Part shown: positions 11,196 through 57,774 of the stretch, piece after piece | Layout of the letters: each line of letters opens with the position of its first letter | How positions within the stretch are numbered: the stretch's first letter is position 1 | Assembly (NCBI RefSeq): GCF_035594765.1 | Contig: NW_026943820.1 | Span: forward strand, 13,214,647-13,278,646 | Source: Anolis carolinensis | Lineage: Eukaryota | DNA: 64,000 bases | Direction of reading: 5' to 3' | Program-made: the position numbers and the translations under genes | Notes under the pieces: generated by a model | The model's database searches: none | Seen by the model: only the letters and a program-made list of their open reading frames with translations | What the model was told of the DNA's origin: nothing

Positions 11196-11654
11196 GGGAC
11201 CGAGTAGAATGGACTTTGTTTGTTTTGTTTCCTTGGAGATGAGATAGAATGTTGGGAAAGGTGGCTGGTCAGTTGAGGTGTTGAGTGGCATTGGTCGGTT
11301 GAGGTGGTGAGTGGCAGTGTTCAGTTGAGGTGTTGAGTGGCATTGGTCGGTTGAGGTGGTGAGTGGCAGTGTTCAGTTGAGGTGTTGAGTGGCAGTGGTC
11401 AGTTGAGGTGGTGAGTGGCAGTGGTCGGTTGAGTTGGTGAGTGGCAGTGGTCGGTTGAGTTGGTGAGTGGCAGTGGTCGGTTGAGGTGGTCAGTTGAGGT
11501 GGTCAGTTGAGGAGATCACTTGTGGTTGTTTGCGGTGGAGAGATTTCGAGAGCGAGAGCGGTCTTGACAAGACAGGCGCCTACGACATCGATTCCCTTCT
11601 AGGCATATTTGCCATTTGCGCTGTTCTCTTGACTTTTTTGCCTATTTCTTAGTC

Positions 11655-14600
11655 ATGGTAAGTGTTGTTAAAACGGGACCTACTACTGCTTTGAAATGGG
11701 ATGAGCTTTTAAAACTAACGTGGCCGCTTTCTCCTTACCCTTCATTTATAGGTTACTTAGTTTTTCAGTTCTCTCTGAGTGAGATTCAAGGGGATTTTGG
11801 AACAAAATAATAAAAATATCCTTGAGATGTGGAAAGGAATGAAAGGCTTTGTAATGAATATGCGAGTAAAAGGAAAATGTGGCAATTTATACATGTTAAG
11901 ATTTTTGAATAGGAGGTTGGTGGCTTGTCCATGGTTTCAGGCACTGGGGATGACTCTTCAACGGGTTTGGTGATTTAGTTTAAACTGTCCAAGGTACGGA
12001 ACCTATTTTGGAATCGGGGCTCAGCACCTTGGGTAGCTCTTTTAAAATCCAGATTAAAGCTAAATTAAATTCACGATGTGCGGTGTGGATTTCTGCTGCC
12101 TCTTTTTTTGGCCGTCCCAAAAATCCCAGCATCTTTGGATGACTGCATATTTGAATATTTGAAAAGGGGAAGGAAACACTTTCAACATCCCATGTAGACA
12201 TTGATGAACTTCTTATCCATTCTCTTCCTAATCCTTGGAAGCTTTCACCCAAAAGATATGATTTTGGAAACAGTTCAAGGAAAAACCTATCGAGAAGGTG
12301 CCCTAAAATAATTTTCCAAGGCATAGTGGATCATTTTGCCCCAATTTCACTTGGCCTTCATCGTCTTTTGGAGGTTGTTTGTTGGCCTTTCCCAGAGCCT
12401 GAGTGTGACTTCCTCCAAGTCTTCCTGTGACCTCTTTCAAGATTTTAGAGCAGTGGTTCTCAACCTGGGTCCCCAGATGTTTTTGGCCTTCAACTCCCAA
12501 AAATCTTAACAGCTGGTAAACTGGCTGGGGTTTCTGGGAGTTGTAGGCCAAAAACATCTGGGGTCCAGGTTGAGAACCACCTCAGTTTTAGAGGCTGTGT
12601 TGTAAGACTAGAGAGCTATGTGGTATAGTGGTTTGAGTGTTGGATCAGGATGCAAGGAAACCAGGGCTCAAATCCCCATTTGTTTTGGCCATAGCAAGCC
12701 ACTGGGTGACTCTGGGCAATACTGGAGGGAATTGGGTGCCTGAGACCATAAGAAATACGTGTTTTCTGATGGTCTTTGGAGACCCTTCTGAAATCTCCTA
12801 ATAATAATAACAATTATAATAATAATAGTTTTATTCGGAAGGTCATCCTACTCGGACACGAGTGATTGCCGATGACATGAATAGTTTTATTTCCCCCCCG
12901 CCTCTCCTGATGGCTTGAGGGGGGTTATAGCATGACTAAAGCGTAAACAAACACATCATCATTTTAAAACAATCTATTATATATATATATATCAAAACAT
13001 ATTTCGACAAAACAAAACTTGCATACAGTATTTGAATACATCATTTAAAATGTGATATAGCAGGCTGTCCTACCTGTGAACACAATTTTTTGCAGTTTAA
13101 TACACTTTTCCCCATTTTAATGATAGAACCAATTCATATTATTAATATTAATATTAATGCCCCTTTTTATCTCCCCGGAAGGGGACCTTTTGTTTATTTC
13201 TTCATAGAATGGGAATTCCACCAAGCAGAGTTAAGGCTCCTTCTTCCGCTATTTTCTTGCATCGGGGTGAAATTCGGTCATGTCCCCGATTTTGCTTTAG
13301 GACTCACCGGCGTGTTTTTCTTCTTTTGCAGCCGAAAGGCAGTGAGACCAAATCTGGAAGAAAAGGCAAGAGTCCTCAGGGCCCTGTCCCCGGTACATCC
13401 AGGAGCAAGCCCATCCAGAGCGGCGAAGACAAACTGCATGACTTGGACCCGGAGAGCTTCAACATAGTAGGTTTTCCTCTGACTGAATGTGGATAGTGAG
13501 GGGAAGCAGGTAGAAGGCGCCGACTTCCCAGATCTTGGGAGTTGGAGACACGGAAGAATTTAGAACTTGTGCTGCCTTCTGACTCTAACCATTTAAGGCT
13601 CCTTCTCTCAAGAGCCAGATATAGGGAATAGCAATGGAACGGGGAGGTTGAAAGTAACCCCGACTCCTTCCACCCCACTCTGGGCCACCATATGGCTAAG
13701 AGATAGGCTTGCTCTCTGCTTGCTCTCCTTTTCAGTGCAAAGAGAGGATGCGGCCGGTGAAGAAAGCGCTGAAGCAGCTGGTCAATCCGAAGAGAGGGCT
13801 GTCTGAGAAGGATCAGGTGGAGCACATCCGGAGGTGCCTCCTGGAGATCGGTGACCACATCTCCGAGTGCTTGAAGGCGTTCTCGGAGCAGGAGGAGCTC
13901 AAGCTCTGGAGAGGGTAAGCCAGGCCTCCCGTCCCTGGGCTCAAGGGACACAAGAGGGAAAGCCTGGCCAGCACGGAGGGAACACACTCCCTTTCATGTC
14001 CCCAGGAACCTCTGGATCTTTGCCTCCAAGTTCACAGACTGTGATGCGAGGAAGCTGCACAACCTGTACAAGAGGGTGCACAAGAAGCGGTCCCAGGAGG
14101 AGGAGGAGGTGAGACGGAGACATTGAAAGAGGGGAGGGTGCTACAGACCGTGGGGACTCAAAGGAGTGAGACTTCTGCATAGAGAAACAAGCAGGCGATC
14201 CCAGAAGCAAGAAACGTGTCCTCTAGGAAAACCTACAGGCATTTGTTTGCCTGGAACAGTTTTGGTCTTTTGGGACTCTTTCAATATATTCAAGGCAGGG
14301 GCAGCTGGGGATTGCAATCCAAGCTTTGGTCTCAATTACTGATCCTTTCTCCAGTGGTTTAGGTTTTTGGATAGCCCCAAGGTTAGATTAGAACTCAGAA
14401 TAGCTAGAGACAGATGAATAGCTAGATATACAGACCAGCAGTCTGTTTATTAGTTGATTCACTTATTAAGGCAGTACTAGGAGGGTGCATTCTTCAGTTC
14501 CAATGTTAAAGAACTATCCCAGGGATTTAACTCTATCCCCTTGGATGCAACGCCTTTGAAAGTTCTACTAAAGTTCCGATTAGAGTGGTTTTACTGTCTC

Positions 14601-14831
14601 AAGGGGGAAAAAAGATAGAAACACCACCAACTGTGGTTCAGGTGGTTTGGTCAAGGCCTAGAAATCTCTTTTGGCCAGATCACTGTCGTGTTTGTCACCA
14701 AGGCCTCTCTTTGCTCTCAGTGGAAACAGCAGAAGAAAGAAGAGGCCACCGGAGCCAAGAAGATGTCTCGCCCGGAGCACTGTGGGTCCAGCTTGTATTC
14801 CGTTTTGTCTCCCTTGCCCAACGCCACTTCA

Positions 14832-14873
<42 letters not shown>

Positions 14874-16121
14874 CCTCTTCCTCCTCCTCCTCCTCCTCCT
14901 CCTCCTCCTCCAAAGGTCCAGCATCCACAGCCCCATCCTTCTCAGATACATGGGCAACAGTGTGACAACTACAGCTACCCGAAGAAAAGGCCTTTCAGTA
15001 ATTCGGGTAAGGGACCAAACGGAAGCTGGCACAACATGAGACAGCAAAACCAAGCAAATCCCTTTCCTTGGCTCATGTATAAGTCTATAAATCTAATCAC
15101 GTGGCTCCCAAAGCTCTTGGCTTTACCGAAGAGTTTCCCTTTTCTTTCCTGCAGACCGAAGCGACTGGCAGCGGGAGCGCAAGCTCAGCTACGGCGGCAA
15201 CTCCAGGCAAGGACGGGGTGGAGAACGGCACCATCCGTACGAGCAGCACAGGCACAAGGAGCACCACGATGGAGACCGCCGCCCACGCGAGGAACCTCAT
15301 TGCAGCTCGGAGAGCTACCAGCCCAAGACCCCCTCTCGCAAGCGGCCCCATGAGCAGGACAACAGTGACCGGGACCACCGGGGCCACCGTGACTCCTATG
15401 ACCGGTGAGAATTAACTTCTCTTGTTCTCGGGATTCAGCATTCAACAGGCTTCGTGTCCCCTCTCTCATCCAAGAGCTTGGGGAAGTTACTTTCTAGGAC
15501 TACAGCTCTCTGAACCCAGTTGGCCATTGTGTCAAATGAGGCTGAATTGAATGGTGGGTCAAAATGGATCTTGTCATGAATTGTGTTGCTGAGGCTTGGA
15601 TAAGTCATAAGCTTGGTGATAAAAGTGCCAGCTGCCTTTTTAAGAGCAGGGGGTGTCCTCCAAATGTTGCTAAGCAGGACTCCTTCAGGTTCAGTCCAAG
15701 AACATCTAGATTTACAGGAATGTGATTCCTAAGACCTCAAAGGGGGCCATGTTGCTGAGTGGCTTCTTCTGATTCCTCTCTGCGGTTGTCTCTTGTCCTG
15801 TCCAGGCACCACCATGATCCCAAGCGGCGAAGAACCGAAGAGATCCGTCCTCACCAGCAAGAATTCAGGCGGATGTCGGACCCCATCGGCTACCACGGCC
15901 AGGGGCCTTCAGACCACCACCGCTCTTTCCGCCCGGAGAAGTCTGGTGATTCTAAGATGTCCTCTGCTCCTCCCTCCAAGTACTACGATCCTCGCTCCCC
16001 ACATGCACAGAAAGCCCCACATGAAGCCATGTCTGTCTTTGAACACCGGTCCCCCCTGCAAGGGTTATATAGGGATCAGAAGATCAGTCCTGGATATAAC
16101 TGGCGCAGCCGGAAGACATAA
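11655..16121 (+). CDS. CHD2 C-terminus-derived (CHCT/DUF4208) protein, copy 2, predicted 423 aa, fully readable
   Basis: Exons 11655-11657, 13332-13466, 13736-13914, 14006-14108, 14721-15006, 15155-15404, 15806-16121; all GT-AG with matching phases; [41 protein letters not shown] and YNWRSRKT* match the CHD2 C-terminus. The start exon is inferred. Confidence 0.75.
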
Positions 16122-18703
16122 GAACCCGGAGATTAGATTTATTTATTTTCTCTTTTTGTAGGTAGTCTGTCAGTAGTTTCCAGTCCGTTCTATGAATTGA
16201 TGTTCTATCCTGGGCCAATTTTTGTGTCAGGAAGTCCACATTCATTATGTCCAACACTTTAGAAATCCATTTTTCAATACTAGGTATTTTATCCTTTGTA
16301 ATTGCATAGATCACTAAACCTTTACTTTTTAAGGTTGCCTTCTCAATAGTCATTTTTTATATACATATTTATTTTCTCTTTTTGTAGGTAATCTGTAAGT
16401 AGTTTCCATTCCGCTCTATTAATTGATGTTCTATCCTGGGCCAATTTTTGTGTCAGGAAAGCCATATTCATTATGTCCAAGTCTTTAGAAATCCATTTTT
16501 CAATACTAGGTATTTCTTGAAATTTCCATTCCTGTGCCAGAGTAGCCGCTGTTGTAAAATAGAATATAATCCTATCTGTGTTTTTATCTACCTGTGGATT
16601 TGTGATTCCAAATAAAAATATTTATGATTTAAATTCAAATTGTTCCTGTAAATTTTTTGTCATTTTTTTTATACCACGTACCAGACCTTTTTTACCCTTT
16701 TGCACTCCCGCCACATGTGGATGAAAGTGCCGATATTCTTTCCACTTTCCCAGCACTTTCCATTTGTTTTTCCTTTATTATACAAAGCCAGTTTTTTTGG
16801 AGTTAACTGCCACATGTAGAACATTTTGTGCCAATTCTCCTCGATCTCTGCTGCATATGCCTATCCTGGCTTCTTTGTCCATATCTCCTCCCATGCAAAT
16901 GGTGTGTCCTACTTCTCTGGCCCATTTTATCATCACTTCCTTTACTTGTTCCTCCTCTGTCGCCCAGGTAAGTAATTGCCTAGAGATTATTTTTATTAAT
17001 TTACTAGCTTGGGGACCCGGCGATGCCTGGGTCATTTGAGAAAGGCATTGTTTGCATGTGTTCCAAGTGTAATCAATATCCAATGTCAGCTGGGTTCAGT
17101 GGGTGTAGGTGAACTCCAACTCCCATTTGCAAGTCTCATCGTCCAGTGTCCATCCCCCTCCAAACAGCGCCAGGATGTAGAGTAGGTCATGGGGGCTCTA
17201 TGTACCAAGTTTGGTCTTGATCAGTCATTTGTGTGGGTCGCGGTGCTCTCAAGAAGTGAGTGAAGTTATAGCAAGTCCCATCATCCGTGGTCCCTCCTCC
17301 TCCAAACTTCACCAGGATGTAAAGTGGGCCACCCTGCACCTGTGTGTCAATTTGGTCCAGTTTCATCATTCGTAGGCATGACAGTGGTCTGTGGGAGGTG
17401 AATTGGATGAAGGTACTGCAGATCCCATAATCCTTGGTCCATCCTCCGCCAAACTGCTGCAGCATGTAAAGTGTGTCATTTGGGGTATGTGTGCCTGGTT
17501 GAGTTCAGTTCTGTGATTCGTGGCAGTTGCTATATGCAACCATCTCAAAATAACACAACACACCAGACATCACAGTTGTGGAAAAGAAAAAGGTTTGGAT
17601 CATTGATGTTGCCATCCCAGATGAGAGTTGCATTGACGAAAAACAACAGGAAAAACTCAGCCGCTATCAGGACCTCAGGATTGAATTGCAAAGACTCTGG
17701 CAGAAACCAGTGCAGGTGGTCCTGGTGGTGATGGGCACACTGGGTGCCGTGCCAAAAGATCTCAGCCGGCATTTGGAAACAATAGACGTTGACAAAATTA
17801 CGATCCGTCAACTGCAAAAGGCCACCCTACTGGGATCTGCGCGCATCATCTGAAAATACATCACACAGTCCTAGACACTTGGGAAGTGTTCAACTTGTGG
17901 TTTTGTGATATGAAATCCAGCATATCTTTCTTGTTTGCTGTGTCATAATAAAATATTATTATTATTAATAATAATACCAATAATAATAATGCAGCATTTG
18001 TGTCCTATTTTTCTCCAGAGGTGACATCTGACACTCAAACCAATCAGAATATTTAATTTATGTGCCACTTCTCTCCCATAATGGAGCCAACTTGCCCAGT
18101 TTCTGATTCAAAGAAGGATTGATAGATATTTCATTGATTTATTTCATTGGCTGTTGGATTGGGACCCAGGACAGCTCAGTTGAAACCAGTAGACTTTCAA
18201 ACCACAGTTCAAACCATCGCAAGGGACGTGATTGGCCAGATGGGACCGAGTAGAATGGACTTTGTTTGTTTTGTTTCCTTGGAGATGAGATAGAATGTTG
18301 GGAAAGGTGGCTGGTCAGTTGAGGTGTTGAGTGGCATTGGTCGGTTGAGGTGGTGAGTGGCAGTGTTCAGTTGAGGTGTTGAGTGGCATTGGTTGGTTGA
18401 GGTGGTGAGTGGCAGTGTTCAGTTGAGGTGTTGAGTGGCAGTGGTCAGTTGAGGTGGTGAGTGGCAGTGGTCGGTTGAGTTGGTGAGTGGCAGTGGTCGG
18501 TTGAGTTGGTGAGTGGCAGTGGTCGGTTGAGGTGGTCAGTTGAGGTGGTCAGTTGAGGAGATCACTTGTTGTGGTTGTTTGCGGTGGAGAGATTTCGAGA
18601 GCGAGAGCGGTCTTGACAAGACAGGCGCCTACGACATCGATTCCCTTCTAGGCATATTTGCCATTTGCGCTGTTCTCTTGACTTTTTTGCCTATTTCTTA
18701 GTC

Positions 18704-21700
18704 ATGGTAAGTGTTGTTAAAACGGGACCTACTACTGCTTTGAAATGGGATGAGCTTTTAAAACTAACGTGGCTGCTTTCTCCTTACCCTTCATTTATAG
18801 GTTACTTAGTTTTTCAGTTCTCTCTGAGTGAGATTCAAGGGGATTTTGGAACAAAATAATAAAAATATCCTTGAGATGTAGAAAGGAATGAAAGGCTTTG
18901 TAATGAATATGCGAGTAAAAGGAAAATGTGGCAATTTATACATGTTAAGATTTTTGAATAGGAGGTTGGTGGCTTGTCTATGGTTTCAGGCACTGGGGAT
19001 GACTCTTCAACGGGTTTGGTGATTTAGTTTAAACTGTCCAAGGTACGGAACCTATTTTGGAATCGGGGCTCAGCACCTTGGGTAGCTCTTTTAAGATCCA
19101 GATTAAAGCTAAATTAAATTCACGATGTGCGGTGTGGATTTCTGCTGCCTCTTTTTTTGGCCGTCCCAAAAATCCCAGCATCTTTGGATGACTGCATCTT
19201 TGAATATTTGAAAAGGGGAAGGAAACACTTTCAACATCCCATGTAGACATTGATGAACTTCTTATCCATTCTCTTCCTAATCCTTGGAAGCTTTCACCCA
19301 AAAGATATGATTTTGGAAACAGTTCAAGGAAAAACCTATCGAGAAGGTGCCCTAAAATAATTTTCCAAGGCATAGTGGATCATTTTGCCCCAATTTCACT
19401 TGGCCTTCATCGTCTTTTGGAGGTTGTTTGTTGGCCTTTCCCAGAGCCTGAGTGTGACTTCCTCCAAGTCTTCCTGTGACCTCTTTCAAGATTTTAGAGC
19501 AGTGGTTCTCAACCTGGGTCCCCAGATGTTTTTGGCCTTCAACTCCCAAAAATCTTAACAGCTGGTAAACTGGCTGGGGTTTCTGGGAGTTGTAGGCCAA
19601 AAACATCTGGGGTCCAGGTTGAGAACCACCTCAGTTTTAGAGGCTGTGTTGTAAGACTAGAGAGCTATGTGGTATAGTGGTTTGAGTGTTGGATCAGGAT
19701 GCAAGGAGACCAGGGCTCAAATCCCCATTTGTTTTGGCCATAGCAACCCACTGGGTGACTCTGGGCAATACTGGAGGGAATTGGGTGCCTGAGACCATAA
19801 GAAATACGTGTTTTCTGATGGTCTTTGGAGACCCTTCTGAAATCTCCTAATAATAATAACAATTATAATAATAATAGTTTTATTCGGAAGGTCATCCTAC
19901 TCGGACACGAGTGATTGCCGATGACATGAATAGTTTTATTTCCCCCCCGCCTCTCCTGATGGCTTGAGGGGGGTTATAGCATGACTAAAGCGTAAACAAA
20001 CACATCATCATTTTAAAACAATCTATTATATATATATATATCAAAACATATTTCGACAAAACAAAACTTGCATACAGTATTTGAATACATCATTTAAAAT
20101 GTGATATAGCAGGCTGTCCTACCTGTGAACACAATTTTTTGCAGTTTAATACACTTTTCCCCATTTTAATGATAGAACCAATTCATATTATTAATATTAA
20201 TATTAATGCCCCTTTTTATCTCCCCGGAAGGGGACCTTTTGTTTATTTCTTCATAGAATGGGAATTCCACCAAGCAGAGTTAAGGCTCCTTCTTCCGCTA
20301 TTTTCTTGCATCGGGGTGAAATTCGGTCATGTCCCCGATTTTGCTTTAGGACTCACCGGCGTGTTTTTCTTCTTTTGCAGCCGAAAGGCAGTGAGACCAA
20401 ATCTGGAAGAAAAGGCAAGAGTCCTCAGGGCCCTGTCCCCGGTACATCCAGGAGCAAGCCCATCCAGAGCGGCGAAGACAAACTGCATGACTTGGACCCG
20501 GAGAGCTTCAACATAGTAGGTTTTCCTCTGACTGAATGTGGATAGTGAGGGGAAGCAGGTAGAAGGCGCCGACTTCCCAGATCTTGGGAGTTGGAGACAC
20601 GGAAGAATTTAGAACTTGTGCTGCCTTCTGACTCTAACCATTTAAGGCTCCTTCTCTCAAGAGCCAGATATAGGGAATAGCAATGGAACGGGGAGGTTGA
20701 AAGTAACCCCGACTCCTTCCACCCCACTCTGGGCCACCATATGGCTAAGAGATAGGCTTGCTCTCTGCTTGCTCTCCTTTTCAGTGCAAAGAGAGGATGC
20801 GGCCGGTGAAGAAAGCGCTGAAGCAGCTGGTCAATCCGAAGAGAGGGCTGTCTGAGAAGGATCAGGTGGAGCACATCCGGAGGTGCCTCCTGGAGATCGG
20901 TGACCACATCTCCGAGTGCTTGAAGGCGTTCTCGGAGCAGGAGGAGCTCAAGCTCTGGAGAGGGTAAGCCAGGCCTCCCGTCCCTGGGCTCAAGGGACAC
21001 AAGAGGGAAAGCCTGGCCAGCACGGAGGGAACACACTCCCTTTCATGTCCCCAGGAACCTCTGGATCTTTGCCTCCAAGTTCACAGACTGTGATGCGAGG
21101 AAGCTGCACAACCTGTACAAGAGGGTGCACAAGAAGCGGTCCCAGGAGGAGGAGGTGAGACGGAGACATCAAAAGAGGGGAGGGTGCTACAGACCGTGGG
21201 GACTCAAAGGAGTGAGACTTCTGCATAGAGAAACAAGCAGGCGATCCCAGAAGCAAGAAACGTGTCCTCTAGGAAAACCTACAGGCATTTGTTTGCCTGG
21301 AACAGTTTTGGTCTTTTGGGACTCTTTCAATATATTCAAGGCAGGGGCAGCTGGGGATTGCAATCCAAGCTTTGGTCTCAATTACTGATCCTTTCTCCAG
21401 TGGTTTAGGTTTTTGGATAGCCCCAAGGTTAGATTAGAACTCAGAATAGCTAGAGACAGATGAATAGCTAGATATACAGACCAGCAGTCTGTTTATTAGT
21501 TGATTCACTTATTAAGGCAGTACTAGGAGGGTGTATTCTTCAGTTCCAATGTTAAAGAACTATCCCAGGGATTTAACTCTATCCCCTTGGATGCAACGCC
21601 TTTGAAAGTTCTACTAAAGTTCCGATGAGAGTGGTTTTACTGTCTCAAGGGGGAAAAAAGATAGAAACACCACCAACTGTGGTTCAGGTGGTTTGGTCAA

Positions 21701-23194
21701 GGCCTAGAAATCTCTTTTGGCCAGATCACTGTCGTGTTTGTCACCAAGGCCTCTCTTTGCTCTCAGTGGAAACAGCAGAAGAAAGAAGAGGCCACCGGAG
21801 CCAAGAAGATGTTTCGCCCGGAGCACTGTGGGTCCAGCTTGGATTCCGTTTTGTCTCCCTTGCNNNNNNNNNNNNNNNNNNNNNNNNNNNNNNNNNNNNN
21901 NNNNNNNNNNNNNNNNNNNNNNNNNNNNNNNNNNNNNNNNNNNNNNNNNNNNNNNNNNNNNNNNNNNNNNNNNNNNNNNNNNNNNNNNNNNNNNNNNNNN
22001 CAGCCCCATCCTTCTCAGATACATGGGCAACAGTGTGACAACTACAGCTACCCGAAGAAAAGGCCTTTCAGTAATTCGGGTAAGGGACCAAACGGAAGCT
22101 GGCACAACATGAGACAGCAAAACCAAGCAAATCCCTTTCCTTGGCTCATGTATAAGTCTATAAATCTAATCACGTGGCTCCCAAAGCTCTTGGCTTTACC
22201 GAAGAGTTTCCCTTTTCTTTCCTGCAGACCGAAGCGACTGGCAGCGGGAGCGCAAGCTCAGCTACGGCGGCAACTCCAGGCAAGGACGGGGTGGAGAACG
22301 GCACCATCCGTACGAGCAGCACAGGCACAAGGAGCACCACGATGGAGACCGCCGCCCACGCGAGGAACCTCATTGCAGCTCGGAGAGCTACCAGCCCAAG
22401 ACCCCCTCTCGCAAGCGGCCCCATGAGCAGGACAACAGTGACCGGGACCACCGGGGCCACCGTGACTCCTATGACCAGTGAGAATTAACTTCTCTTGTTC
22501 TCGGGATTCAGCATTCAACAGGCTTCGTGTCCCTTCTCTCATCCAAGAGCTTGGGGAAGTTACTTTCTAGGACTACAGCTCTCTGAACCCAGTTGGCCAT
22601 TGTGTCAAATGAGGCTGAATTGAATGGTGGGTCAAAATGGATCTTGTCATGAATTGTGTTGCTGAGGCTTGGATAAGTCATAAGCTTGGTGATAAAAGTG
22701 CCAGCTGCCTTTTTAAGAGCAGGGGGTGTCCTCCAAATGTTGCTAAGCAGGACTCCTTCAGGTTCAGTCCAAGAACATCTAGATTTACAGGAATGTGATT
22801 CCTAAGACCTCAAAGGGGGCCATGTTGCTGAGTGGCTTCTTCTGATTCCTCTCTGCGGTTGTCTCTTGTCCTGTCCAGGCACCACCATGATCCCAAGCGG
22901 CGAAGAACCGAAGAGATCCGTCCTCACCAGCAAGAATTCAGGCGGATGTCGGACCCCATCGGCTACCACGGCCAGGGGCCTTCAGACCACCACCGCTCTT
23001 TCCGCCCGGAGAAGTCTGGTGATTCTAAGATGTCCTCTGCTCCTCCCTCCAAGTACTACGATCCTCGCTCCCCACATGCACAGAAAGCCCCACATGAAGC
23101 CATGTCTGTCTTTGAACACCGGTCCCCCCTGCAAGGGTTATATAGGGATCAGAAGATCAGTCCTGGATATAACTGGCACAGCCGGAAGACATAA
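18704..23194 (+). CDS. CHD2 C-terminus-derived protein, copy 3 (~431 aa)
   Basis: Exons 18704-18706, 20381-20515, 20785-20963, 21055-21154, 21767-22079 (N-run 21864-22000, frame kept), 22228-22477, 22879-23194. Confidence 0.68.
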
Positions 23195-25776
23195 GAACCC
23201 GGAGATTAGATTTATTTATTTTCTCTTTTTGTAGGTAGTCTGTCAGTAGTTTCCAGTCCGTTCTATGAATTGATGTTCTATCCTGGGCCAATTTTTGTGT
23301 CAGGAAGTCCACATTCATTATGTCCAACACTTTAGAAATCCATTTTTCAATACTAGGTATTTTATCCTTTGTAATTGCATAGATCACTAAACCTTTACTT
23401 TTTAAGGTTGCCTTCTCAATAGTCATTTTTTATATACATATTTATTTTCTCTTTTTGTAGGTAATCTGTAAGTAGTTTCCATTCCGCTCTATTAATTGAT
23501 GTTCTATCCTGGGCCAATTTTTGTGTCAGGAAAGCCATATTCATTATGTCCAAGTCTTTAGAAATCCATTTTTCAATACTAGGTATTTCTTGAAATTTCC
23601 ATTCCTGTGCCAGAGTAGCCGCTGTTGTAAAATAGAATATAATCCTATCTGTGTTTTTATCTACCTGTGGATTTGTGATTCCCAATAAAAATATTTATGA
23701 TTTAAATTCAAATTGTTCCTGTAAATTTTTTGTCATTTTTTTTATACCACGTACCAGACCTTTTTTACCCTTTTGCACTCCCGCCACATGTGGATGAAAG
23801 TGCCGATATTCTTTCCACTTTCCCAGCACTTTCCATTTGTTTTTCCTTTATTATACAAAGCCAGTTTTTTTGGAGTTAACTGCCACATGTAGAACATTTT
23901 GTGCCAATTCTCCTCGATCTCTGCTGCATATGCCTATCCTGGCTTCTTTGTCCATATCTCCTCCCATGCAAATGGTGTGTCCTACTTCTCTGGCCCATTT
24001 TATCATCACTTCCTTTACTTGTTCCTCCTCTGTCGCCCAGGTAAGTAATTGCCTAGAGATTATTTTTATTAATTTACTAGCTTGGGGACCCGGCGATGCC
24101 TGGGTCATTTGAGAAAGGCATTGTTTGCATGTGTTCCAAGTGTAATCAATATCCAATGTCAGCTGGGTTCAGTGGGTGTAGGTGAACTCCAACTCCCATT
24201 TGCAAGTCTCATCGTCCAGTGTCCATCCCCCTCCAAACAGCGCCAGGATGTAGAGTAGGTCATGGGGGCTCTATGTACCAAGTTTGGTCTTGATCAGTCA
24301 TTTGTGTGGGTCGCGGTGCTCTCAAGAAGTGAGTGAAGTTATAGCAAGTCCCATCATCCGTGGTCCCTCCTCCTCCAAACTTCACCAGGATGTAAAGTGG
24401 GCCACCCTGCACCTGTGTGTCAATTTGGTCCAGTTTCATCATTCGTAGGCATGACAGTGGTCTGTGGGAGGTGAATTGGATGAAGGTACTGCAGATCCCA
24501 TAATCCTTGGTCCATCCTCCGCCAAACTGCTGCAGCATGTAAAGTGTGTCATTTGGGGTATGTGTGCCTGGTTGAGTTCAGTTCTGTGATTTGTGGCAGT
24601 TGCTATATGCAACCATCTCAAAATAACACAACACACCAGACATCACAGTTGTGGAAAAGAAAAAGGTTTGGATCATTGATGTTGCCATCCCAGATGAGAG
24701 TTGCATTGACGAAAAACAACAGGAAAAACTCAGCCGCTATCAGGACCTCAGGATTGAATTGCAAAGACTCTGGCAGAAACCAGTGCAGGTGGTCCTGGTG
24801 GTGATGGGCACACTGGGTGCCGTGCCAAAAGATCTCAGCCGGCATTTGGAAACAATAGACGTTGACAAAATTACGATCCGTCAACTGCAAAAGGCCACCC
24901 TACTGGGATCTGCGCGCATCATCTGAAAATACATCACACAGTCCTAGACACTTGGGAAGTGTTCGACTTGTGGTTTTGTGATATGAAATCCAGCATATCT
25001 TTCTTGTTTGCTGTGTCATAATAAAATATTATTATTATTAATAATAATACCAATAATAATAATGCAGCATTTGTGTCCTATTTTTCTCCAGAGGTGACAT
25101 CTGACACTCAAACCAATCAGAATATTTAATTTATGTGCCACTTCTCTCCCATAATGGAGCCAACTTGCCCAGTTTCTGATTCAAAGAAGGATTGATAGAT
25201 ATTTCATTGATTTATTTCATTGGCTGTTGGATTGGGACCCAGGACAGCTCAGTTGAAACCAGTAGACTTTCAAACCACAGTTCAAACCATCGCAAGGGAC
25301 GTGATTGGCCAGATGGGACCGAGTAGAATGGACTTTGTTTGTTTTGTTTCCTTGGAGATGAGATAGAATGTTGGGAAAGGTGGCTGGTCAGTTGAGGTGT
25401 TGAGTGGCATTGGTCGGTTGAGGTGGTGAGTGGCAGTGTTCAGTTGAGGTGTTGAGTGGCATTGGTTGGTTGAGGTGGTGAGTGGCAGTGTTCAGTTGAG
25501 GTGTTGAGTGGCAGTGGTCAGTTGAGGTGGTGAGTGGCAGTGGTCGGTTGAGTTGGTGAGTGGCAGTGGTCGGTTGAGTTGGTGAGTGGCAGTGGTCGGT
25601 TGAGGTGGTCAGTTGAGGTGGTCAGTTGAGGAGATCACTTGTTGTGGTTGTTTGCGGTGGAGAGATTTCGAGAGCGAGAGCGGTCTTGACAAGACAGGCG
25701 CCTACGACATCGATTCCCTTCTAGGCATATTTGCCATTTGCGCTGTTCTCTTGACTTTTTTGCCTATTTCTTAGTC

Positions 25777-28700
25777 ATGGTAAGTGTTGTTAAAACGGGA
25801 CCTACTACTGCTTTGAAATGGGATGAGCTTTTAAAACTAACGTGGCTGCTTTCTCCTTACCCTTCATTTATAGGTTACTTAGTTTTTCAGTTCTCTCTGA
25901 GTGAGATTCAAGGGGATTTTGGAACAAAATAATAAAAATATCCTTGAGATGTAGAAAGGAATGAAAGGCTTTGTAATGAATATGCGAGTAAAAGGAAAAT
26001 GTGGCAATTTATACATGTTAAGATTTTTGAATAGGAGGTTGGTGGCTTGTCTATGGTTTCAGGCACTGGGGATGACTCTTCAACGGGTTTGGTGATTTAG
26101 TTTAAACTGTCCAAGGTACGGAACCTATTTTGGAATCGGGGCTCAGCACCTTGGGTAGCTCTTTTAAGATCCAGATTAAAGCTAAATTAAATTCACGATG
26201 TGCGGTGTGGATTTCTGCTGCCTCTTTTTTTGGCCGTCCCAAAAATCCCAGCATCTTTGGATGACTGCATATTTGAATATTTGAAAAGGGGAAGGAAACA
26301 CTTTCAACATCCCATGTAGACATTGATGAACTTCTTATCCATTCTCTTCCTAATCCTTGGAAGCTTTCACCCAAAAGATATGATTTTGGAAACAGTTCAA
26401 GGAAAAACCTATCGAGAAGGTGCCCTAAAATAATTTTCCAAGGCATAGTGGATCATTTTGCCCCAATTTCACTTGGCCTTCATCGTCTTTTGGAGGTTGT
26501 TTGTTGGCCTTTCCCAGAGCCTGAGTGTGACTTCCTCCAAGTCTTCCTGTGACCTCTTTCAAGATTTTAGAGCAGTGGTTCTCAACCTGGGTCCCCAGAT
26601 GTTTTTGGCCTTCAACTCCCAAAAATCTTAACAGCTGGTAAACTGGCTGGGGTTTCTGGGAGTTGTAGGCCAAAAACATCTGGGGTCCAGGTTGAGAACC
26701 ACCTCAGTTTTAGAGGCTGTGTTGTAAGACTAGAGAGCTATGTGGTATAGTGGTTTGAGTGTTGGATCAGGATGCAAGGAGACCAGGGCTCAAATCCCCA
26801 TTTGTTTTGGCCATAGCAACCCACTGGGTGACTCTGGGCAATACTGGAGGGAATTGGGTGCCTGAGACCATAAGAAATACGTGTTTTCTGATGGTCTTTG
26901 GAGACCCTTCTGAAATCTCCTAATAATAATAACAATTATAATAATAATAGTTTTATTCGGAAGGTCATCCTACTCGGACACGAGTGATTGCCGATGACAT
27001 GAATAGTTTTATTTCCCCCCCGCCTCTCCTGATGGCTTGAGGGGGGTTATAGCATGACTAAAGCGTAAACAAACACATCATCATTTTAAAACAATCTATT
27101 ATATATATATATATCAAAACATATTTCGACAAAACAAAACTTGCATACAGTATTTGAATACATCATTTAAAATGTGATATAGCAGGCTGTCCTACCTGTG
27201 AACACAATTTTTTGCAGTTTAATACACTTTTCCCCATTTTAATGATAGAACCAATTCATATTATTAATATTAATATTAATGCCCCTTTTTATCTCCCCGG
27301 AAGGGGACCTTTTGTTTATTTCTTCATAGAATGGGAATTCCACCAAGCAGAGTTAAGGCTCCTTCTTCCGCTATTTTCTTGCATCGGGGTGAAATTCGGT
27401 CATGTCCCCGATTTTGCTTTAGGACTCACCGGCGTGTTTTTCTTCTTTTGCAGCCGAAAGGCAGTGAGACCAAATCTGGAAGAAAAGGCAAGAGTCCTCA
27501 GGGCCCTGTCCCCGGTACATCCAGGAGCAAGCCCATCCAGAGCGGCGAAGACAAACTGCATGACTTGGACCCGGAGAGCTTCAACATAGTAGGTTTTCCT
27601 CTGACTGAATGTGGATAGTGAGGGGAAGCAGGTAGAAGGCGCCGACTTCCCAGATCTTGGGAGTTGGAGACACGGAAGAATTTAGAACTTGTGCTGCCTT
27701 CTGACTCTAACCATTTAAGGCTCCTTCTCTCAAGAGCCAGATATAGGGAATAGCAATGGAACGGGGAGGTTGAAAGTAACCCCGACTCCTTCCACCCCAC
27801 TCTGGGCCACCATATGGCTAAGAGATAGGCTTGCTCTCTGCTTGCTCTCCTTTTCAGTGCAAAGAGAGGATGCGGCCGGTGAAGAAAGCGCTGAAGCAGC
27901 TGGTCAATCCGAAGAGAGGGCTGTCTGAGAAGGATCAGGTGGAGCACATCCGGAGGTGCCTCCTGGAGATCGGTGACCACATCTCCGAGTGCTTGAAGGC
28001 GTTCTCGGAGCAGGAGGAGCTCAAGCTCTGGAGAGGGTAAGCCAGGCCTCCCGTCCCTGGGCTCAAGGGACACAAGAGGGAAAGCCTGGCCAGCACGGAG
28101 GGAACACACTCCCTTTCATGTCCCCAGGAACCTCTGGATCTTTGCCTCCAAGTTCACAGACTGTGATGCGAGGAAGCTGCACAACCTGTACAAGAGGGTG
28201 CACAAGAAGCGGTCCCAGGAGGAGGAGGTGAGACGGAGACATCGAAAGAGGGGAGGGTGCTACAGACCGTGGGGACTCAAAGGAGTGAGACTTCTGCATA
28301 GAGAAACAAGCAGGCGATCCCAGAAGCAAGAAACGTGTCCTCTAGGAAAACCTACAGGCATTTGTTTGCCTGGAACAGTTTTGGTCTTTTGGGACTCTTT
28401 CAATATATTCAAGGCAGGGGCAGCTGGGGATTGCAATCCAAGCTTTGGTCTCAATTACTGATCCTTTCTCCAGTGGTTTAGGTTTTTGGATAGCCCCAAG
28501 GTTAGATTAGAACTCAGAATAGCTAGAGACAGATGAATAGCTAGATATACAGACCAGCAGTCTGTTTATTAGTTGATTCACTTATTAAGGCAGTACTAGG
28601 AGGGTGTATTCTTCAGTTCCAATGTTAAAGAACTATCCCAGGGATTTAACTCTATCCCCTTGGATGCAACGCCTTTGAAAGTTCTACTAAAGTTCCGATG

Positions 28701-30282
28701 AGAGTGGTTTTACTGTCTCAAGGGGGAAAAAAGATAGAAACACCACCAACTGTGGTTCAGGTGGTTTGGTCAAGGCCTAGAAATCTCTTTTGGCCAGATC
28801 ACTGTCGTGTTTGTCACCAAGGCCTCTCTTTGCTCTCAGTGGAAACAGCAGAAGAAAGAAGAGGCCACCGGAGCCAAGAAGATGTTTCGCCCGGAGCACT
28901 GTGGGTCCAGCTTGGATTCCGTTTTGTCTCCCTTGCCCAACGCCACTTCAGCTCCTGCTNNNNNNNNNNNNNNNNNNNNNNNNNNNNNNNNNNNNNNNNN
29001 NNNNNNNNNNNNNNNNNNNNNNNNNNNNNNNNNNNNNNNNNNNNNNNNNNNNNNNNNNNNNNNNNNNNNNNNNNNNNNNNNNNNNNNNCAGCCCCATCCT
29101 TCTCAGATACATGGGCAACAGTGTGACAACTACAGCTACCCGAAGAAAAGGCCTTTCAGTAATTCGGGTAAGGGACCAAACGGAAGCTGGCACAACATGA
29201 GACAGCAAAACCAAGCAAATCCCTTTCCTTGGCTCATGTATAAGTCTATAAATCTAATCACGTGGCTCCCAAAGCTCTTGGCTTTACCGAAGAGTTTCCC
29301 TTTTCTTTCCTGCAGACCGAAGCGACTGGCAGCGGGAGCGCAAGCTCAGCTACGGCGGCAACTCCAGGCAAGGACGGGGTGGAGAACGGCACCATCCGTA
29401 CGAGCAGCACAGGCACAAGGAGCACCACGATGGAGACCGCCGCCCACGCGAGGAACCTCATTGCAGCTCGGAGAGCTACCAGCCCAAGACCCCCTCTCGC
29501 AAGCGGCCCCATGAGCAGGACAACAGTGACCGGGACCACCGGGGCCACCGTGACTCCTATGACCGGTGAGAATTAACTTCTCTTGTTCTCGGGATTCAGC
29601 ATTCAACAGGCTTCGTGTCCCTTCTCTCATCCAAGAGCTTGGGGAAGTTACTTTCTAGGACTACAGCTCTCTGAACCCAGTTGGCCATTGTGTCAAATGA
29701 GGCTGAATTGAATGGTGGGTCAAAATGGATCTTGTCATGAATTGTGTTGCTGAGGCTTGGATAAGTCATAAGCTTGGTGATAAAAGTGCCAGCTGCCTTT
29801 TTAAGAGCAGGGGGTGTCCTCCAAATGTTGCTAAGCAGGACTCCTTCAGGTTCAGTCCAAGAACATCTAGATTTACAGGAATGTGATTCCTAAGACCTCA
29901 AAGGGGGCCATGTTGCTGAGTGGCTTCTTCTGATTCCTCTCTGCGGTTGTCTCTTGTCCTGTCCAGGCACCACCATGATCCCAAGCGGCGAAGAACCGAA
30001 GAGATCCGTCCTCACCAGCAAGAATTCAGGCGGATGTCGGACCCCATCGGCTACCACGGCCAGGGGCCTTCAGACCACCACCGCTCTTTCCGCCCGGAGA
30101 AGTCTGGTGATTCTAAGATGTCCTCTGCTCCTCCCTCCAAGTACTACGATCCTCGCTCCCCACATGCACAGAAAGCCCCACATGAAGCCATGTCTGTCTT
30201 TGAACACCGGTCCCCCCTGCAAGGGTTATATAGGGATCAGAAGATCAGTCCTGGATATAACTGGCACAGCCGGAAGACATAA
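25777..30282 (+). CDS. CHD2 C-terminus-derived protein, copy 4 (~436 aa)
   Basis: Exons 25777-25779, 27454-27588, 27858-28036, 28128-28227, 28840-29167 (N-run 28960-29088), 29316-29565, 29967-30282. Confidence 0.68.
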
Positions 30283-32812
30283 GAACCCGGAGATTAGATT
30301 TATTTATTTTCTCTTTTTGTAGGTAGTCTGTCAGTAGTTTCCAGTCCGTTCTATGAATTGATGTTCTATCCTGGGCCAATTTTTGTGTCAGGAAGTCCAC
30401 ATTCATTATGTCCAACACTTTAGAAATCCATTTTTCAATACTAGGTATTTTATCCTTTGTAATTGCATAGATCACTAAACCTTTACTTTTTAAGGTTGCC
30501 TTCTCAATAGTCATTTTTTATATACATATTTATTTTCTCTTTTTGTAGGTAATCTGTAAGTAGTTTCCATTCCGCTCTATTAATTGATGTTCTATCCTGG
30601 GCCAATTTTTGTGTCAGGAAAGCCATATTCATTATGTCCAAGTCTTTAGAAATCCATTTTTCAATACTAGGTATTTCTTGAAATTTCCATTCCTGTGCCA
30701 GAGTAGCCGCTGTTGTAAAATAGAATATAATCCTATCTGTGTTTTTATCTACCTGTGGATTTGTGATTCCCAATAAAAATATTTATGATTTAAATTCAAA
30801 TTGTTCCTGTAAATTTTTTGTCATTTTTTTTATACCACGTACCAGACCTTTTTTACCCTTTTGCACTCCCGCCACATGTGGATGAAAGTGCCGATATTCT
30901 TTCCACTTTCCCAGCACTTTCCATTTGTTTTTCCTTTATTATACAAAGCCAGTTTTTTTGGAGTTAACTGCCACATGTAGAACATTTTGTGCCAATTCTC
31001 CTCGATCTCTGCTGCATATGCCTATCCTGGCTTCTTTGTCCATATCTCCTCCCATGCAAATGGTGTGTCCTACTTCTCTGGCCCATTTTATCATCACTTC
31101 CTTTACTTGTTCCTCCTCTGTCGCCCAGGTAAGTAATTGCCTAGAGATTATTTTTATTAATTTACTAGCTTGGGGACCCGGCGATGCCTGGGTCATTTGA
31201 GAAAGGCATTGTTTGCATGTGTTCCAAGTGTAATCAATATCCAATGTCAGCTGGGTTCAGTGGGTGTAGGTGAACTCCAACTCCCATTTGCAAGTCTCAT
31301 CGTCCAGTGTCCATCCCCCTCCAAACAGCGCCAGGATGTAGAGTAGGTCATGGGGGCTCTATGTACCAAGTTTGGTCTTGATCAGTCATTTGTGTGGGTC
31401 GCGGTGCTCTCAAGAAGTGAGTGAAGTTATAGCAAGTCCCATCATCCGTGGTCCCTCCTCCTCCAAACTTCACCAGGATGTAAAGTGGGCCACCCTGCAC
31501 CTGTGTGTCAATTTGGTCCAGTTTCATCATTCGTAGGCATGACAGTGGTCTGTGGGAGGTGAATTGGATGAAGGTACTGCAGATCCCATAATCCTTGGTC
31601 CATCCTCCGCCAAACTGCTGCAGCATGTAAAGTGTGTCATTTGGGGTATGTGTGCCTGGTTGAGTTCAGTTCTGTGATTTGTGGCAGTTGCTATATGCAA
31701 CCATCTCAAAATAACACAACACACCAGACATCACAGTTGTGGAAAAGAAAAAGGTTTGGATCATTGATGTTGCCATCCCAGATGAGAGTTGCATTGACGA
31801 AAAACAACAGGAAAAACTCAGCCGCTATCAGGACCTCAGGATTGAATTGCAAAGACTCTGGCAGAAACCAGTGCAGGTGGTCCTGGTGGTGATGGGCACA
31901 CTGGGTGCCGTGCCAAAAGATCTCAGCCGGCATTTGGAAACAATAGACATTGACAAAATTACGATCCGTCAACTGCAAAAGGCCACCCTACTGGGATCTG
32001 CGCGCATCATCTGAAAATACATCACACAGTCCTAGACACTTGGGAAGTGTTCGACTTGTGGTTTTGTGATATGAAATCCAGCATATCTTTCTTGTTTGCT
32101 GTGTCATAATAAAATAATATTATTATTAATAATAATACCAATAATAATAATGCAGCATTTGTGTCCTATTTTTCTCCAGAGGTGACATCTGACACTCAAA
32201 CCAATCAGAATATTTAATTTATGTGCCACTTCTCTCCCATAATGGAGCCAACTTGCCCAGTTTCTGATTCAAAGAAGGATTGATAGATATTTCATTGATT
32301 TATTTCATTGGCTGTTGGATTGGGACCCAGGACAGCTCAGTTGAAACCAGTAGACTTTCAAACCACAGTTCAAACCATCGCAAGGGACGTGATTGGCCAG
32401 ATGGGACCGAGTAGAATGGACTTTGTTTGTTTTGTTTCCTTGGAGATGAGATAGAATGTTGGGAAAGGTGGCTGGTCAGTTGAGGTGTTGAGTGGCATTG
32501 GTCGGTTGAGGTGGTGAGTGGCAGTGTTCAGTTGAGGTGTTGAGTGGCAGTGGTCAGTTGAGGTGGTGAGTGGCAGTGGTCGGTTGAGTTGGTGAGTGGC
32601 AGTGGTCGGTTGAGTTGGTGAGTGGCAGTGGTTGGTTGAGGTGGTCAGTTGAGGTGGTCAGTTGAGGAGATCACTTGTTGTGGTTGTTTGCGGTGGAGAG
32701 ATTTCGAGAGCGAGAGCGGTCTTGACAAGACAGGCGCCTACGACATCGATTCCCTTCTAGGCATATTTGCCATTTGCGCTGTTCTCTTGACTTTTTTGCC
32801 TATTTCTTAGTC

Positions 32813-35800: not shown

Positions 35801-37316
35801 AGGCCTAGAAATCTCTTTTGGCCAGATCACTGTCGTGTTTGTCACCAAGGCCTCTCTTTGCTCTCAGTGGAAACAGCAGAAGAAAGAAGAGGCCACCGGA
35901 GCCAAGAAGATGTTTCGCCCGGAGCACTGTGGGTCCAGCTTGGATTCCGTTTTGTCTCCCTTGCNNNNNNNNNNNNNNNNNNNNNNNNNNNNNNNNNNNN
36001 NNNNNNNNNNNNNNNNNNNNNNNNNNNNNNNNNNNNNNNNNNNNNNNNNNNNNNNNNNNNNNNNNNNNNNNNNNNNNNNNNNNNNNNNNNNNNNNNNNNN
36101 NNNNNNNNNNNNNNNNNNNNNNCAGCCCCATCCTTCTCAGATACATGGGCAACAGTGTGACAACTACAGCTACCCGAAGAAAAGGCCTTTCAGTAATTCG
36201 GGTAAGGGACCAAACGGAAGCTGGCACAACATGAGACAGCAAAACCAAGCAAATCCCTTTCCTTGGCTCATGTATAAGTCTATAAATCTAATCACGTGGC
36301 TCCCAAAGCTCTTGGCTTTACCGAAGAGTTTCCCTTTTCTTTCCTGCAGACCGAAGCGACTGGCAGCGGGAGCGCAAGCTCAGCTACGGCGGCAACTCCA
36401 GGCAAGGACGGGGTGGAGAACGGCACCATCCGTACGAGCAGCACAGGCACAAGGAGCACCACGATGGAGACCGCCGCCCACGCGAGGAACCTCATTGCAG
36501 CTCGGAGAGCTACCAGCCCAAGACCCCCTCTCGCAAGCGGCCCCATGAGCAGGACAACAGTGACCGGGACCACCGGGGCCACCGTGACTCCTATGACCAG
36601 TGAGAATTAACTTCTCTTGTTCTCGGGATTCAGCATTCAACAGGCTTCGTGTCCCTTCTCTCATCCAAGAGCTTGGGGAAGTTACTTTCTAGGACTACAG
36701 CTCTCTGAACCCAGTTGGCCATTGTGTCAAATGAGGCTGAATTGAATGGTGGGTCAAAATGGATCTTGTCATGAATTGTGTTGCTGAGGCTTGGATAAGT
36801 CATAAGCTTGGTGATAAAAGTGCCAGCTGCCTTTTTAAGAGCAGGGGGTGTCCTCCAAATGTTGCTAAGCAGGACTCCTTCAGGTTCAGTCCAAGAACAT
36901 CTAGATTTACAGGAATGTGATTCCTAAGACCTCAAAGGGGGCCATGTTGCTGAGTGGCTTCTTCTGATTCCTCTCTGCGGTTGTCTCTTGTCCTGTCCAG
37001 GCACCACCATGATCCCAAGCGGCGAAGAACCGAAGAGATCCGTCCTCACCAGCAAGAATTCAGGCGGATGTCGGACCCCATCGGCTACCACGGCCAGGGG
37101 CCTTCAGACCACCACCGCTCTTTCCGCCCGGAGAAGTCTGGTGATTCTAAGATGTCCTCTGCTCCTCCCTCCAAGTACTACGATCCTCGCTCCCCACATG
37201 CACAGAAAGCCCCACATGAAGCCATGTCTGTCTTTGAACACCGGTCCCCCCTGCAAGGGTTATATAGGGATCAGAAGATCAGTCCTGGATATAACTGGCA
37301 CAGCCGGAAGACATAA
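32813..37316 (+). CDS. CHD2 C-terminus-derived protein, copy 5 (~438 aa)
   Basis: Exons 32813-32815, 34482-34616, 34886-35064, 35156-35255, 35868-36201 (N-run 35965-36122), 36350-36599, 37001-37316. Confidence 0.68.
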
Positions 37317-57152: not shown

Positions 57153-57774
57153 GAACCCGGAGATTAGATTTATTTATTTTCTCTTTTTGTAGGTAGTCTG
57201 TCAGTAGTTTCCAGTCCGTTCTATGAATTGATGTTCTATCCTGGGCCAATTTTTGTGTCAGGAAGTCCACATTCATTATGTCCAACACTTTAGAAATCCA
57301 TTTTTCAATACTAGGTATTTTATCCTTTGTAACTGCATAGATCACTAAACCTTTACTTTTTAAGGTTGCCTTCTCAATAGTCATTTTTTATATACATATT
57401 TATTTTCTCTTTTTGTAGGTAATCTGTAAGTAGTTTCCATTCCGCTCTATTAATTGATGTTCTATCCTGGGCCAATTTTTGTGTCAGGAAAGCCATATTC
57501 ATTATGTCCAAGTCTTTAGAAATCCATTTTTCAATACTAGGTATTTCTTGAAATTTCCATTCCTGTGCCAGAGTAATTCTAGCCGCTGTTGTAAAATAGA
57601 ATATAATCCTATCTGTGTTTTTATCTACCTGTGGATTTGTGATTCCCAATAAAAATATTTATGATTTAAATTCAAATTGTTCCTGTAAATTTTTTGTCAT
57701 TTTTTTATACCACGTACCAGACCTTTTTTACCCTTTTGCACTCCCGCCACATGTGGATGAAAGTGCCGATATTC

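Follow-up and report, generated by a model that had tools for sequence, protein, structure and literature searches.

The window analysed here comprises 64,000 nucleotides of the green anole, Anolis carolinensis (contig NW_026943820.1 of assembly GCF_035594765.1, positions 13,214,647 to 13,278,646), and holds a tandem array of units that carry the C-terminal end of the chromatin remodeler gene CHD2 behind a short exon of their own. We find that this exon is a real, spliced first coding exon, contributing nothing to the protein but its ATG, and that it heads a young, amplified CHD2 derivative without a motor, which RefSeq annotates with another start. On balance, we favor the view that the units are 5'-truncated CHD2 duplicates whose ATG exon likely yields a 423-amino-acid (aa) protein that would compete for the docking sites of CHD1 and CHD2, possibly in the germ line. 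Positions are those of the window and, unless stated otherwise, of its second unit.

Splicing of exon 1

Assembled contigs from four public sequencing runs (X14, X13, X9 and X8; 24 runs were listed, of which 18 contain part of the stretch) were compared with positions 11430-14800. The library type of these runs is not on record, and RNA is a guess for X14. A 584-nt contig of X14 joins 11479-11657, 13332-13466, 13736-13914 and 14006-14093, with GT..AG at each skip. Its first joint skips 1674 nt between the exon-1 donor and exon 2, the junction predicted in the preliminary description of this locus, and is the sole listed joint into exon 2; the opposite outcome, with exon 2 reached only from other upstream exons and the donor never used, was thus not what the runs returned. 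Exons 4 and 5 are linked by another X14 joint, whose 615-nt skip is consistent with copies that lack one Glu codon, and the run also contains a differently lettered exon 4-5 form with parental residues (Met for Arg; Leu-Glu for Trp-Lys). X14 appears to behave as would a transcript library that also holds CHD2 itself. Compared with this parent-like form, the start of exon 5 (14721-14725) has apparently lost one base and gained one within 5 nt, with the frame kept.

The spliced contig begins within the last repeats of the minisatellite that precedes exon 1 and includes its 3' end. It contains a TTG that is missing from unit 2 and shows no difference from units 3, 4, 5 and 7, so that donor use is documented for the family and not for the copy at 11658. 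Two alternative acceptors exist upstream of the ATG, an AG ending at 11602 (pyrimidine fraction 0.69) and an AG ending at 11652 (0.88), and the contig reads through both. Exon 1 is therefore at least 179 nt long there, and neither the 5-nt micro-exon nor the 55-nt internal exon starting at CCCTTCTAG|G, both offered earlier as alternatives, fits a contig unbroken from 11479.

The splice signals recur along the array. The motif GTCATG|GTAAGT is present in 8/8 units (donor GT at 11658 in unit 2), and the acceptor TTTTGCAG|CCG, which places the start of exon 2 at 13332, in 7/8, unit 8 being cut before it, in intron 1. The acceptor is in phase 0 and the frame is open after joining. The ATG has G at −3, and C at +4 once spliced; all units were checked for a further ATG between the minisatellite end and this one and none was found, and inside the minisatellite an ATG occurs in units 1 and 7. 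On each of these points (motif in every unit, purine at −3, phase of the acceptor, lack of another ATG) the preliminary description was borne out. The short signal ATGGTAAGT also arose in 51/2000 dinucleotide shuffles of the 3.7-kb segment that precedes the acceptor; for the looser pattern R..ATGGTRAG the figure was 179/2000. Given these rates, the sequence alone is modest evidence, and it is the contig junction that carries the case.

Several points weigh against this interpretation. Contigs of X13 and X9 cross the donor unspliced (11504-12479 and 11483-12024, respectively), with no splice joint listed, and if these runs are RNA, an unspliced product exists, which has a 51-codon frame in 7/8 units. 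The splice was seen in one run of one study, in which a processed DNA copy present in the sample is a possible source. Contigs also drop rare forms, and 150 loose ends lie beyond those listed, so that minor isoforms from 11603, 11653 or 13209 are possible, and the exon 5-6 and 6-7 junctions lie outside the compared stretch and are predicted from GT-AG and homology. Even so, we have little doubt that the splice is real. X8 behaved differently from X14, with contigs over all 30 bins that run through the introns without any of these joints. Depth over exon 1 and early intron 1 was 222 in X13 and 586 in X9, versus 2.5-24 on the listed gene-body pieces and bins, with thousands of depth summed over the minisatellite end, and X8 was flat. 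The depth in X13 and X9 resembles promoter capture, enrichment or chromatin immunoprecipitation and cannot rank parts of the gene, so it was not counted as evidence.

Descent from CHD2, divergence and the start codon

In a tblastn search with the 1859-aa CHD2, the unit was matched only from residue 1455, and the product thus lacks the tandem chromodomains, the SNF2 ATPase/helicase and the SANT and SLIDE DNA-binding domain that belong to the architecture of CHD subfamily I (PMC9113485). It consists of the CHCT/DUF4208 domain (PF13907) and the CHD2 tail, a stand-alone CHCT protein without a motor. Exon 3 alone matched PF13907 with 55.4 bits (cut-off 28.3), and the CHCT structure of CHD1 (2N39) was matched by sequence with an E-value of 1.2e-41. 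The structure model of the RefSeq protein P0003 (XP_062817724.1), which is 100% identical to exon 3, has five helices, a predicted local distance difference test score (pLDDT) >=90 at 72/185 residues, and 2N39 as its best PDB match (root-mean-square deviation 1.1, E 1.4e-9). The five-helix CHCT fold is predicted to be intact in the array protein.

In the full tree (23 rows), the array grouped with the two Anolis CHD2 rows (support 100/99), its pairing with A. carolinensis alone being weak (90/8). The two Anolis CHD2 are distinguished by 26 columns, at 15 of which the array agrees with A. carolinensis, at 5 with A. sagrei and at 6 with neither. It shares 0/10 sagrei-derived and 3/10 carolinensis-derived states. 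These patterns fit a duplication on the A. carolinensis branch. Parental CHD2 maps to a 25.8-Mb contig and the array models to one of 30.2 Mb. Another CHD2 fragment of A. carolinensis, dispersed and bearing deletions, is located on a chromosome-sized contig of 207 Mb (P0131, XP_062836974.1) and is the sister of the array in a tree of the domain (29 rows; 99/97). P0131 retains some of the preceding CHD2 exon, so that the first duplicate must have extended further than the present unit. The full tree does not include P0131, whose tail could not be aligned, and the domain tree does not include a garter-snake row that the anchor motif missed.

Exon 1 could itself derive from CHD2, namely from the intron before the exon that opens with PKG, perhaps as the internal promoter of a short isoform that was duplicated together with the tail; this would change the account of its origin and leave the product unaffected. 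The sister fragment with its residues of the preceding CHD2 exon speaks for such an origin, as does a viper model (P0147) that starts 8 residues before the same PKG, since an internal promoter would explain repeated cuts there. However, the unit showed no trace of the preceding CHD2 exon in tblastn with full CHD2, the viper N-terminus is a matter of annotation and does not resemble an ATG-only start, and the garter-snake model starts inside the domain. We therefore regard an intronic CHD2 origin as possible but rather doubtful. The word "recruited", applied to exon 1 in the preliminary description, stands only insofar as the unit holds no CHD2 exon upstream of residue 1455. A partial CHD2 model from a gecko (P0048) begins at the same PKG, consistent with an inherited exon boundary.

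The array protein is identical to A. carolinensis CHD2 at 289/399 aligned residues (72%). In the CHCT domain the identity to the parent is 67/90 (74%), compared with 82-88 of 88-90 residues (92-98%; 7 comparisons) in CHD2 orthologues that range from A. sagrei to frog. In a neutral simulation at 27.6% divergence, the frame stayed free of stops in 4/2000 runs, with a mean of 6.1 stops. All four length differences relative to unit 3 in exons 2, 3, 4, 6 and 7 are multiples of 3, and non-coding gaps relative to the same unit include 1, 8 and 58 nt. Judged from these comparisons, the frame looks preserved while the sequence evolves fast, and we consider it probable that the protein is under selection.

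An alternative is that the units are transcribed and spliced but that the protein is irrelevant, the array being a decaying duplicate behind an accidental promoter, amplified via local instability. Its long branch (0.47 vs 0.03 for the parent), the inverted-repeat element at the exon-2 donor of unit 1, the Ty3/gypsy insertions that interrupt intron 1 in units 6 and 8, and the cut in unit 8 all point in this direction. So do the substitutions between units, which are not rarer in exons than in non-coding parts (8/962 vs 24/3659 for unit 1 vs 3, small numbers). Moreover, the simulation mutated the array's own frame by substitutions only, ignoring indels and gene conversion, and the 3-nt exon gaps fall partly in triplet repeats. 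Against these observations stand the rarity of stop-free simulated frames, the in-frame exon gaps and the intact predicted fold, and an irrelevant protein appears improbable to us.

The seven-exon model of unit 2 (3, 135, 179, 103, 286, 250 and 316 nt) is open for 423 aa up to the stop at 16121. Because 8/8 units have a TGA in frame with the ATG and 30 codons 5' of it, no upstream exon can extend the frame and the exon-1 ATG is the first start; the earlier label "first coding exon" therefore stands, whereas "first exon" in the strict sense is beyond the contig's reach. If the exon-1 ATG were missing, the mRNA would begin with two ATGs in the wrong frame, at 13438 and 13466, which overlap the next in-frame Met (13748). 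This Met corresponds to residue 91 of P0003 and directly follows the first predicted helix of the domain (81-90), so that a start there would lose helix 1 of CHCT. In sequence terms, exon 1 does make the fragment translatable, as had been proposed, and we hold with good confidence that its ATG is the main start.

Both RefSeq models start instead at an ATG within intron 1 (13209), overlooked in the preliminary description, which would add a 41-residue extension and make the ATG exon a minor form. In 7/7 units this ATG opens an uninterrupted frame in phase with exon 2 and stands in a strong context, with A at −3 and G at +4, and an X14 contig lies over 13110-13312. However, in X14 the contig containing exon 2 continues into the upstream exon, so that 13209 is removed by splicing, and the run has separate contigs at 11736-12063 and 12798-12954 of intron 1, a pattern expected of unspliced precursor or of DNA. 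The extension matched nothing in Pfam and was modeled with low confidence. One of the RefSeq models ends after exon 4 and the other skips exon 5 into a different frame, which suggests weak annotation, and we judge a main start at 13209 to be hardly likely. The spliced model also contains a second (+1) frame that is open for 318 codons (14044-16161) across exons 4-7, part of which is used by one RefSeq model; it is probably a result of base composition. An ATG in a 5-nt micro-exon or 55-nt internal exon fed from upstream exons is the least probable arrangement: the pyrimidine tract before TTAG (0.88) equals those of real acceptors and the minisatellite holds GTGAGT donors, but the contig reads through both AGs, and the donors at 11437 and 11463 have no listed joint with either AG or with exon 2.

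Layout of the array and neighboring features

Self-BLASTN and motif positions gave a period of about 7 kb, with seven units extending to the last exon and an eighth present as its 5' part only, interrupted in intron 1 at 61067 (Table 1). The ATGs of units 1-8 end at 4188, 11657, 18706, 25779, 32815, 39849, 52536 and 60699. Substitutions relative to unit 3 were below 1% in exons and in non-coding parts for 6/6 units, and the eight copies were scored as one event because they are near-identical. Part of one exon is N in 5/7 units, so that the whole frame can be read only in units 1 and 2, that of unit 1 being open provided that its exon 2 ends at the equivalent place.

Table 1. Positions of the array in the window and of the features of its second unit.
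Feature	Positions	Strand	Basis or remark
Tandem array	3822..61066	+	Self-BLASTN and motif positions; eighth unit truncated at 61067
Candidate promoter segment; CCAAT/ATTGG boxes at 10994, 11100, 11112, 11185	10945..11265	+	Sequence comparison
26-bp minisatellite, 9.5 copies (7.5-9.5 across units)	11266..11512	+	
Exon 1, contig-covered part (5' untranslated region and ATG)	11479..11657	+	Spliced contig of run X14
In-frame TGA, 30 codons 5' of the ATG	11565..11567	+	8/8 units
ATG, sole codon of exon 1	11655..11657	+	
Intron 1, 1674 nt, GTAAGT...TTTTGCAG, phase 0	11658..13331	+	Joint skipping 1674, GT..AG
Intronic ATG in frame, 41 codons 5' of exon 2	13209..13211	+	Used as start by both RefSeq models
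Exon 2, first CHD2-derived exon, CHD2 residues ~1456-1500	13332..13466	+	tblastn, contig
Exon 3, first part of CHCT domain (PF13907, E 8.6e-15); in-frame Met 13748	13736..13914	+	Pfam, contig
Exon 4, end of CHCT domain	14006..14108	+	Contig
Exon 5, expanded Ala-Pro/poly-Pro tract	14721..15006	+	615-nt skip seen for exon 4-5 joint
Exon 6, CHD2 tail	15155..15404	+	Junctions predicted from GT-AG and homology
Exon 7, coding part to TAA, CHD2-like end	15806..16121	+	Junction predicted
AATAAA, predicted poly(A) signal	16611..16616	+	Sole A(A/T)TAAA within 680 nt of stop

The CCAAT-rich 321 bp before the minisatellite (10945-11265) are 100% identical in the 7/7 units having the segment; unit 1 has a different sequence in its place, and its homology to the other units starts at the minisatellite. 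The observed/expected CpG ratio is 1.01 over 11513-11657 vs 0.40 in intron 1. In a search within the 64-kb window, 10945-11265 and 11513-12440 matched array units only. Intron 1 holds a high-copy inverted-repeat element at ~12451-12580. A non-coding RNA in 10900-13400 was considered and rejected, as the six Rfam matches were all to microRNA-precursor models, below the gathering score and on the intronic inverted repeat.

Several insertions interrupt the array. An inverted-repeat element with a TA duplication (6040-6364) is inserted precisely at the donor of exon 2 in unit 1, which may be disabled because the nearest GT (6042) adds 2 nt and shifts the frame. Intron 1 of unit 6 contains a Ty3/gypsy element on the same strand (41178-46838), with two identical 364-bp long terminal repeats (LTRs) and a single 1604-codon frame that includes gag, protease, reverse transcriptase, RNase H and integrase domains; this insertion is very recent. 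A second LTR-type element on the minus strand (61067-64000) cuts unit 8 in intron 1 and is 85% like the unit 6 element over ~600 nt, and the two LTR-type insertions have thus hit one and the same 1.7-kb intron. The array may continue past the window end. Between units 7 and 8 lies an insertion of ~950 bp (57774-58722) that begins with (TCATAGAA)n and may be CR1-like. Upstream, a histamine H3 receptor-like first coding exon (595-852, minus strand) stands head to head with the array, ~3 kb apart.

Relatives and possible function

The direct parent of the array is the C-terminal segment of CHD2, a subfamily I remodeler, with which it shares six exons, 72% identity, the C-terminal end and the predicted fold. 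Unlike CHD2, the array product has no chromodomains, ATPase or SANT/SLIDE, and the units have their own start exon, an expanded proline tract and at least eight tandem copies on another contig. A stand-alone CHCT protein without a motor is likewise found in CHCT1/C17orf64 (CHD1 helical C-terminal domain containing 1) of tetrapods, for which there are records from newt, crocodilians, birds and mammals, and which is described as testis-specific and little characterized (PMC10137952, citing others). Unlike the array, CHCT1 lacks the CHD2 tail, and the domain identity is 36-40% over nine records checked. Orthology of the array with CHCT1 was rejected, since six CHCT1 rows stood apart in the domain tree (100/100) and the array fell with the CHD2 rows (100/99). 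The A. carolinensis array is thus of young origin from CHD2, independent of CHCT1.

Short CHD2-like models also occur in snakes (Vipera latastei KAM3827943.1, 314 aa, here P0147, and Thamnophis elegans isoform X2, 348 aa), which are annotated as CHCT plus tail without the motor and evolve fast. The viper model starts 8 residues before the same PKG exon and the garter-snake model later, at a Met inside the domain; these 5' ends are annotation only and include no ATG-only exon. The two snake models paired (100/99) and joined boa CHD2 (97/94). A single origin of the array and the snake models was rejected, as forcing this clade cost 32.35 log-likelihood units (approximately unbiased test, p-AU 0.0007); the test was made after the free tree, and all three are long branches, whose attraction would favor joining. 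By this phylogeny, a repeated origin of motor-less CHD2 ends is suggested. The snake duplicate may be longer, because P0241 carries upstream CHD2 sequence; its residues are similar to the snake models by eye, and it was placed in no tree. P0192, P0223 and P0279 are further diverged CHD2-like C-terminal fragments with common substitutions of their own, and this group might be another independent spin-off.

Among comparable systems, HYDIN2 is an incomplete duplicate without the parent promoter, transcribed from an acquired upstream exon, and SRGAP2C antagonizes its parent (both PMC5345166). Like HYDIN2, the array is a 5'-truncated duplicate rescued through a new upstream exon: it lacks the 5' exons of the parent and is located elsewhere, and a non-parental exon is spliced to the duplicated exons, in one of the four runs examined and with the library type guessed. 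As far as the cited source describes it, HYDIN2 differs in having apparently relaxed frames and mostly untranslated new exons, whereas the array has one new codon, a long frame with whole domains, and tandem amplification. Ampliconic testis families are described as multi-copy, fast-evolving and >97% identical between units (PMC13616518). In sequence, the array resembles such TSPY-like arrays, being multi-copy with at least 97% identity and fast-evolving. Neither the spliced N-terminus nor a close relative of the array in another species was among the matches listed in word-index and HMMER searches of incomplete collections (best 120/433, 10/10, 29/29 and 150/347), and the array was not found in the literature by titles and abstract starts, a scope outside which most subscription journals and supplements lie.

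We propose that a copy of the six 3'-terminal exons of CHD2 reached another chromosome in the A. carolinensis lineage, and that sequence ~1.7 kb upstream of the first kept exon became promoter and 5' untranslated region, with an ATG abutting a donor providing the start. No N-terminal peptide would have been needed, because the inherited acceptor is in phase 0. Selection would then have kept the frame while the protein diverged fast, and the 7-kb unit would have been amplified and homogenized. The mouse CHD2 CHCT domain alone binds the RTF1 N-terminus in two-hybrid tests, and the human CHD1 CHCT domain binds DNA and nucleosomes, with helix 5 as the predicted RTF1 contact (PMC12390759). In human CHD2, residues 1611-1828 bind poly(ADP-ribose) (PAR) and are sufficient for recruitment to breaks, and PARP1 is bound by residues 1392-1610 (PMC4769320). 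The unit keeps most of this RTF1/PARP1/PAR-binding segment, with binding known only for mammalian and yeast proteins. By analogy, the array protein would keep the CHD2 parts that in mammals bind RTF1, DNA or nucleosomes, PARP1 and PAR, and without a motor it would occupy CHD2 docking sites without moving nucleosomes, the amplification raising its dose. Two observations argue otherwise: helix 5 of the array carries changed residues, and deletion of CHCT in mouse CHD1 or CHD2 changed the chromatin of embryonic stem cells little (PMC12390759). We therefore offer the competitor or adaptor role as tentative.

A germ-line bias is a guess that we lean toward slightly, from the testis description of CHCT1, the CpG-rich exon 1 and MYB sites. 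The minisatellite of unit 2 has six strict MYB-consensus sites on the minus strand (YAACKG), with 5-6 per minisatellite over the units; this motif is also an E-box. At least one MYB site occurred in 1978/100000 shuffled 26-mers, and as the motif was chosen post hoc it is kept as a lead only. The MYB consensus is given as YAAC(G/T)G (PMC2797782), and a mouse LTR bound by A-MYB is marked by MYB sites in tandem (PMC4666613); the minisatellite does not match the stricter consensus quoted in the latter source. A bolder reading, which we think unlikely at present, is that vertebrates repeatedly spin off the CHD1/2 targeting end (CHCT1 anciently, then advanced snakes and the green anole), and that the anole copy, brought under meiotic A-MYB control by its one-codon exon behind a minisatellite of MYB sites and with its dose amplified, supplies fast-evolving germ-line decoys that would keep the remodelers off RTF1 and, at breaks, off PAR.

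Partial duplication with a new first exon is already known from HYDIN2, as is a stand-alone CHCT protein from CHCT1; recurrence of the same CHD2 cut was not found in the literature searched by titles and abstract starts. A gene fragment without its head could hardly be rescued by less than it is here, with one codon and one donor, and the array frame holds the whole CHCT domain, unlike one begun at the next internal Met. The finding also corrects the RefSeq start for these loci. The green anole thereby provides a young, multi-copy and independently born counterpart of CHCT1/C17orf64 with its parent in the same species, and the function of a free CHCT domain becomes testable by comparing the parent, the array and the snake copies. 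If the germ-line decoys are true, they would be a young natural test case for CHCT1 function.

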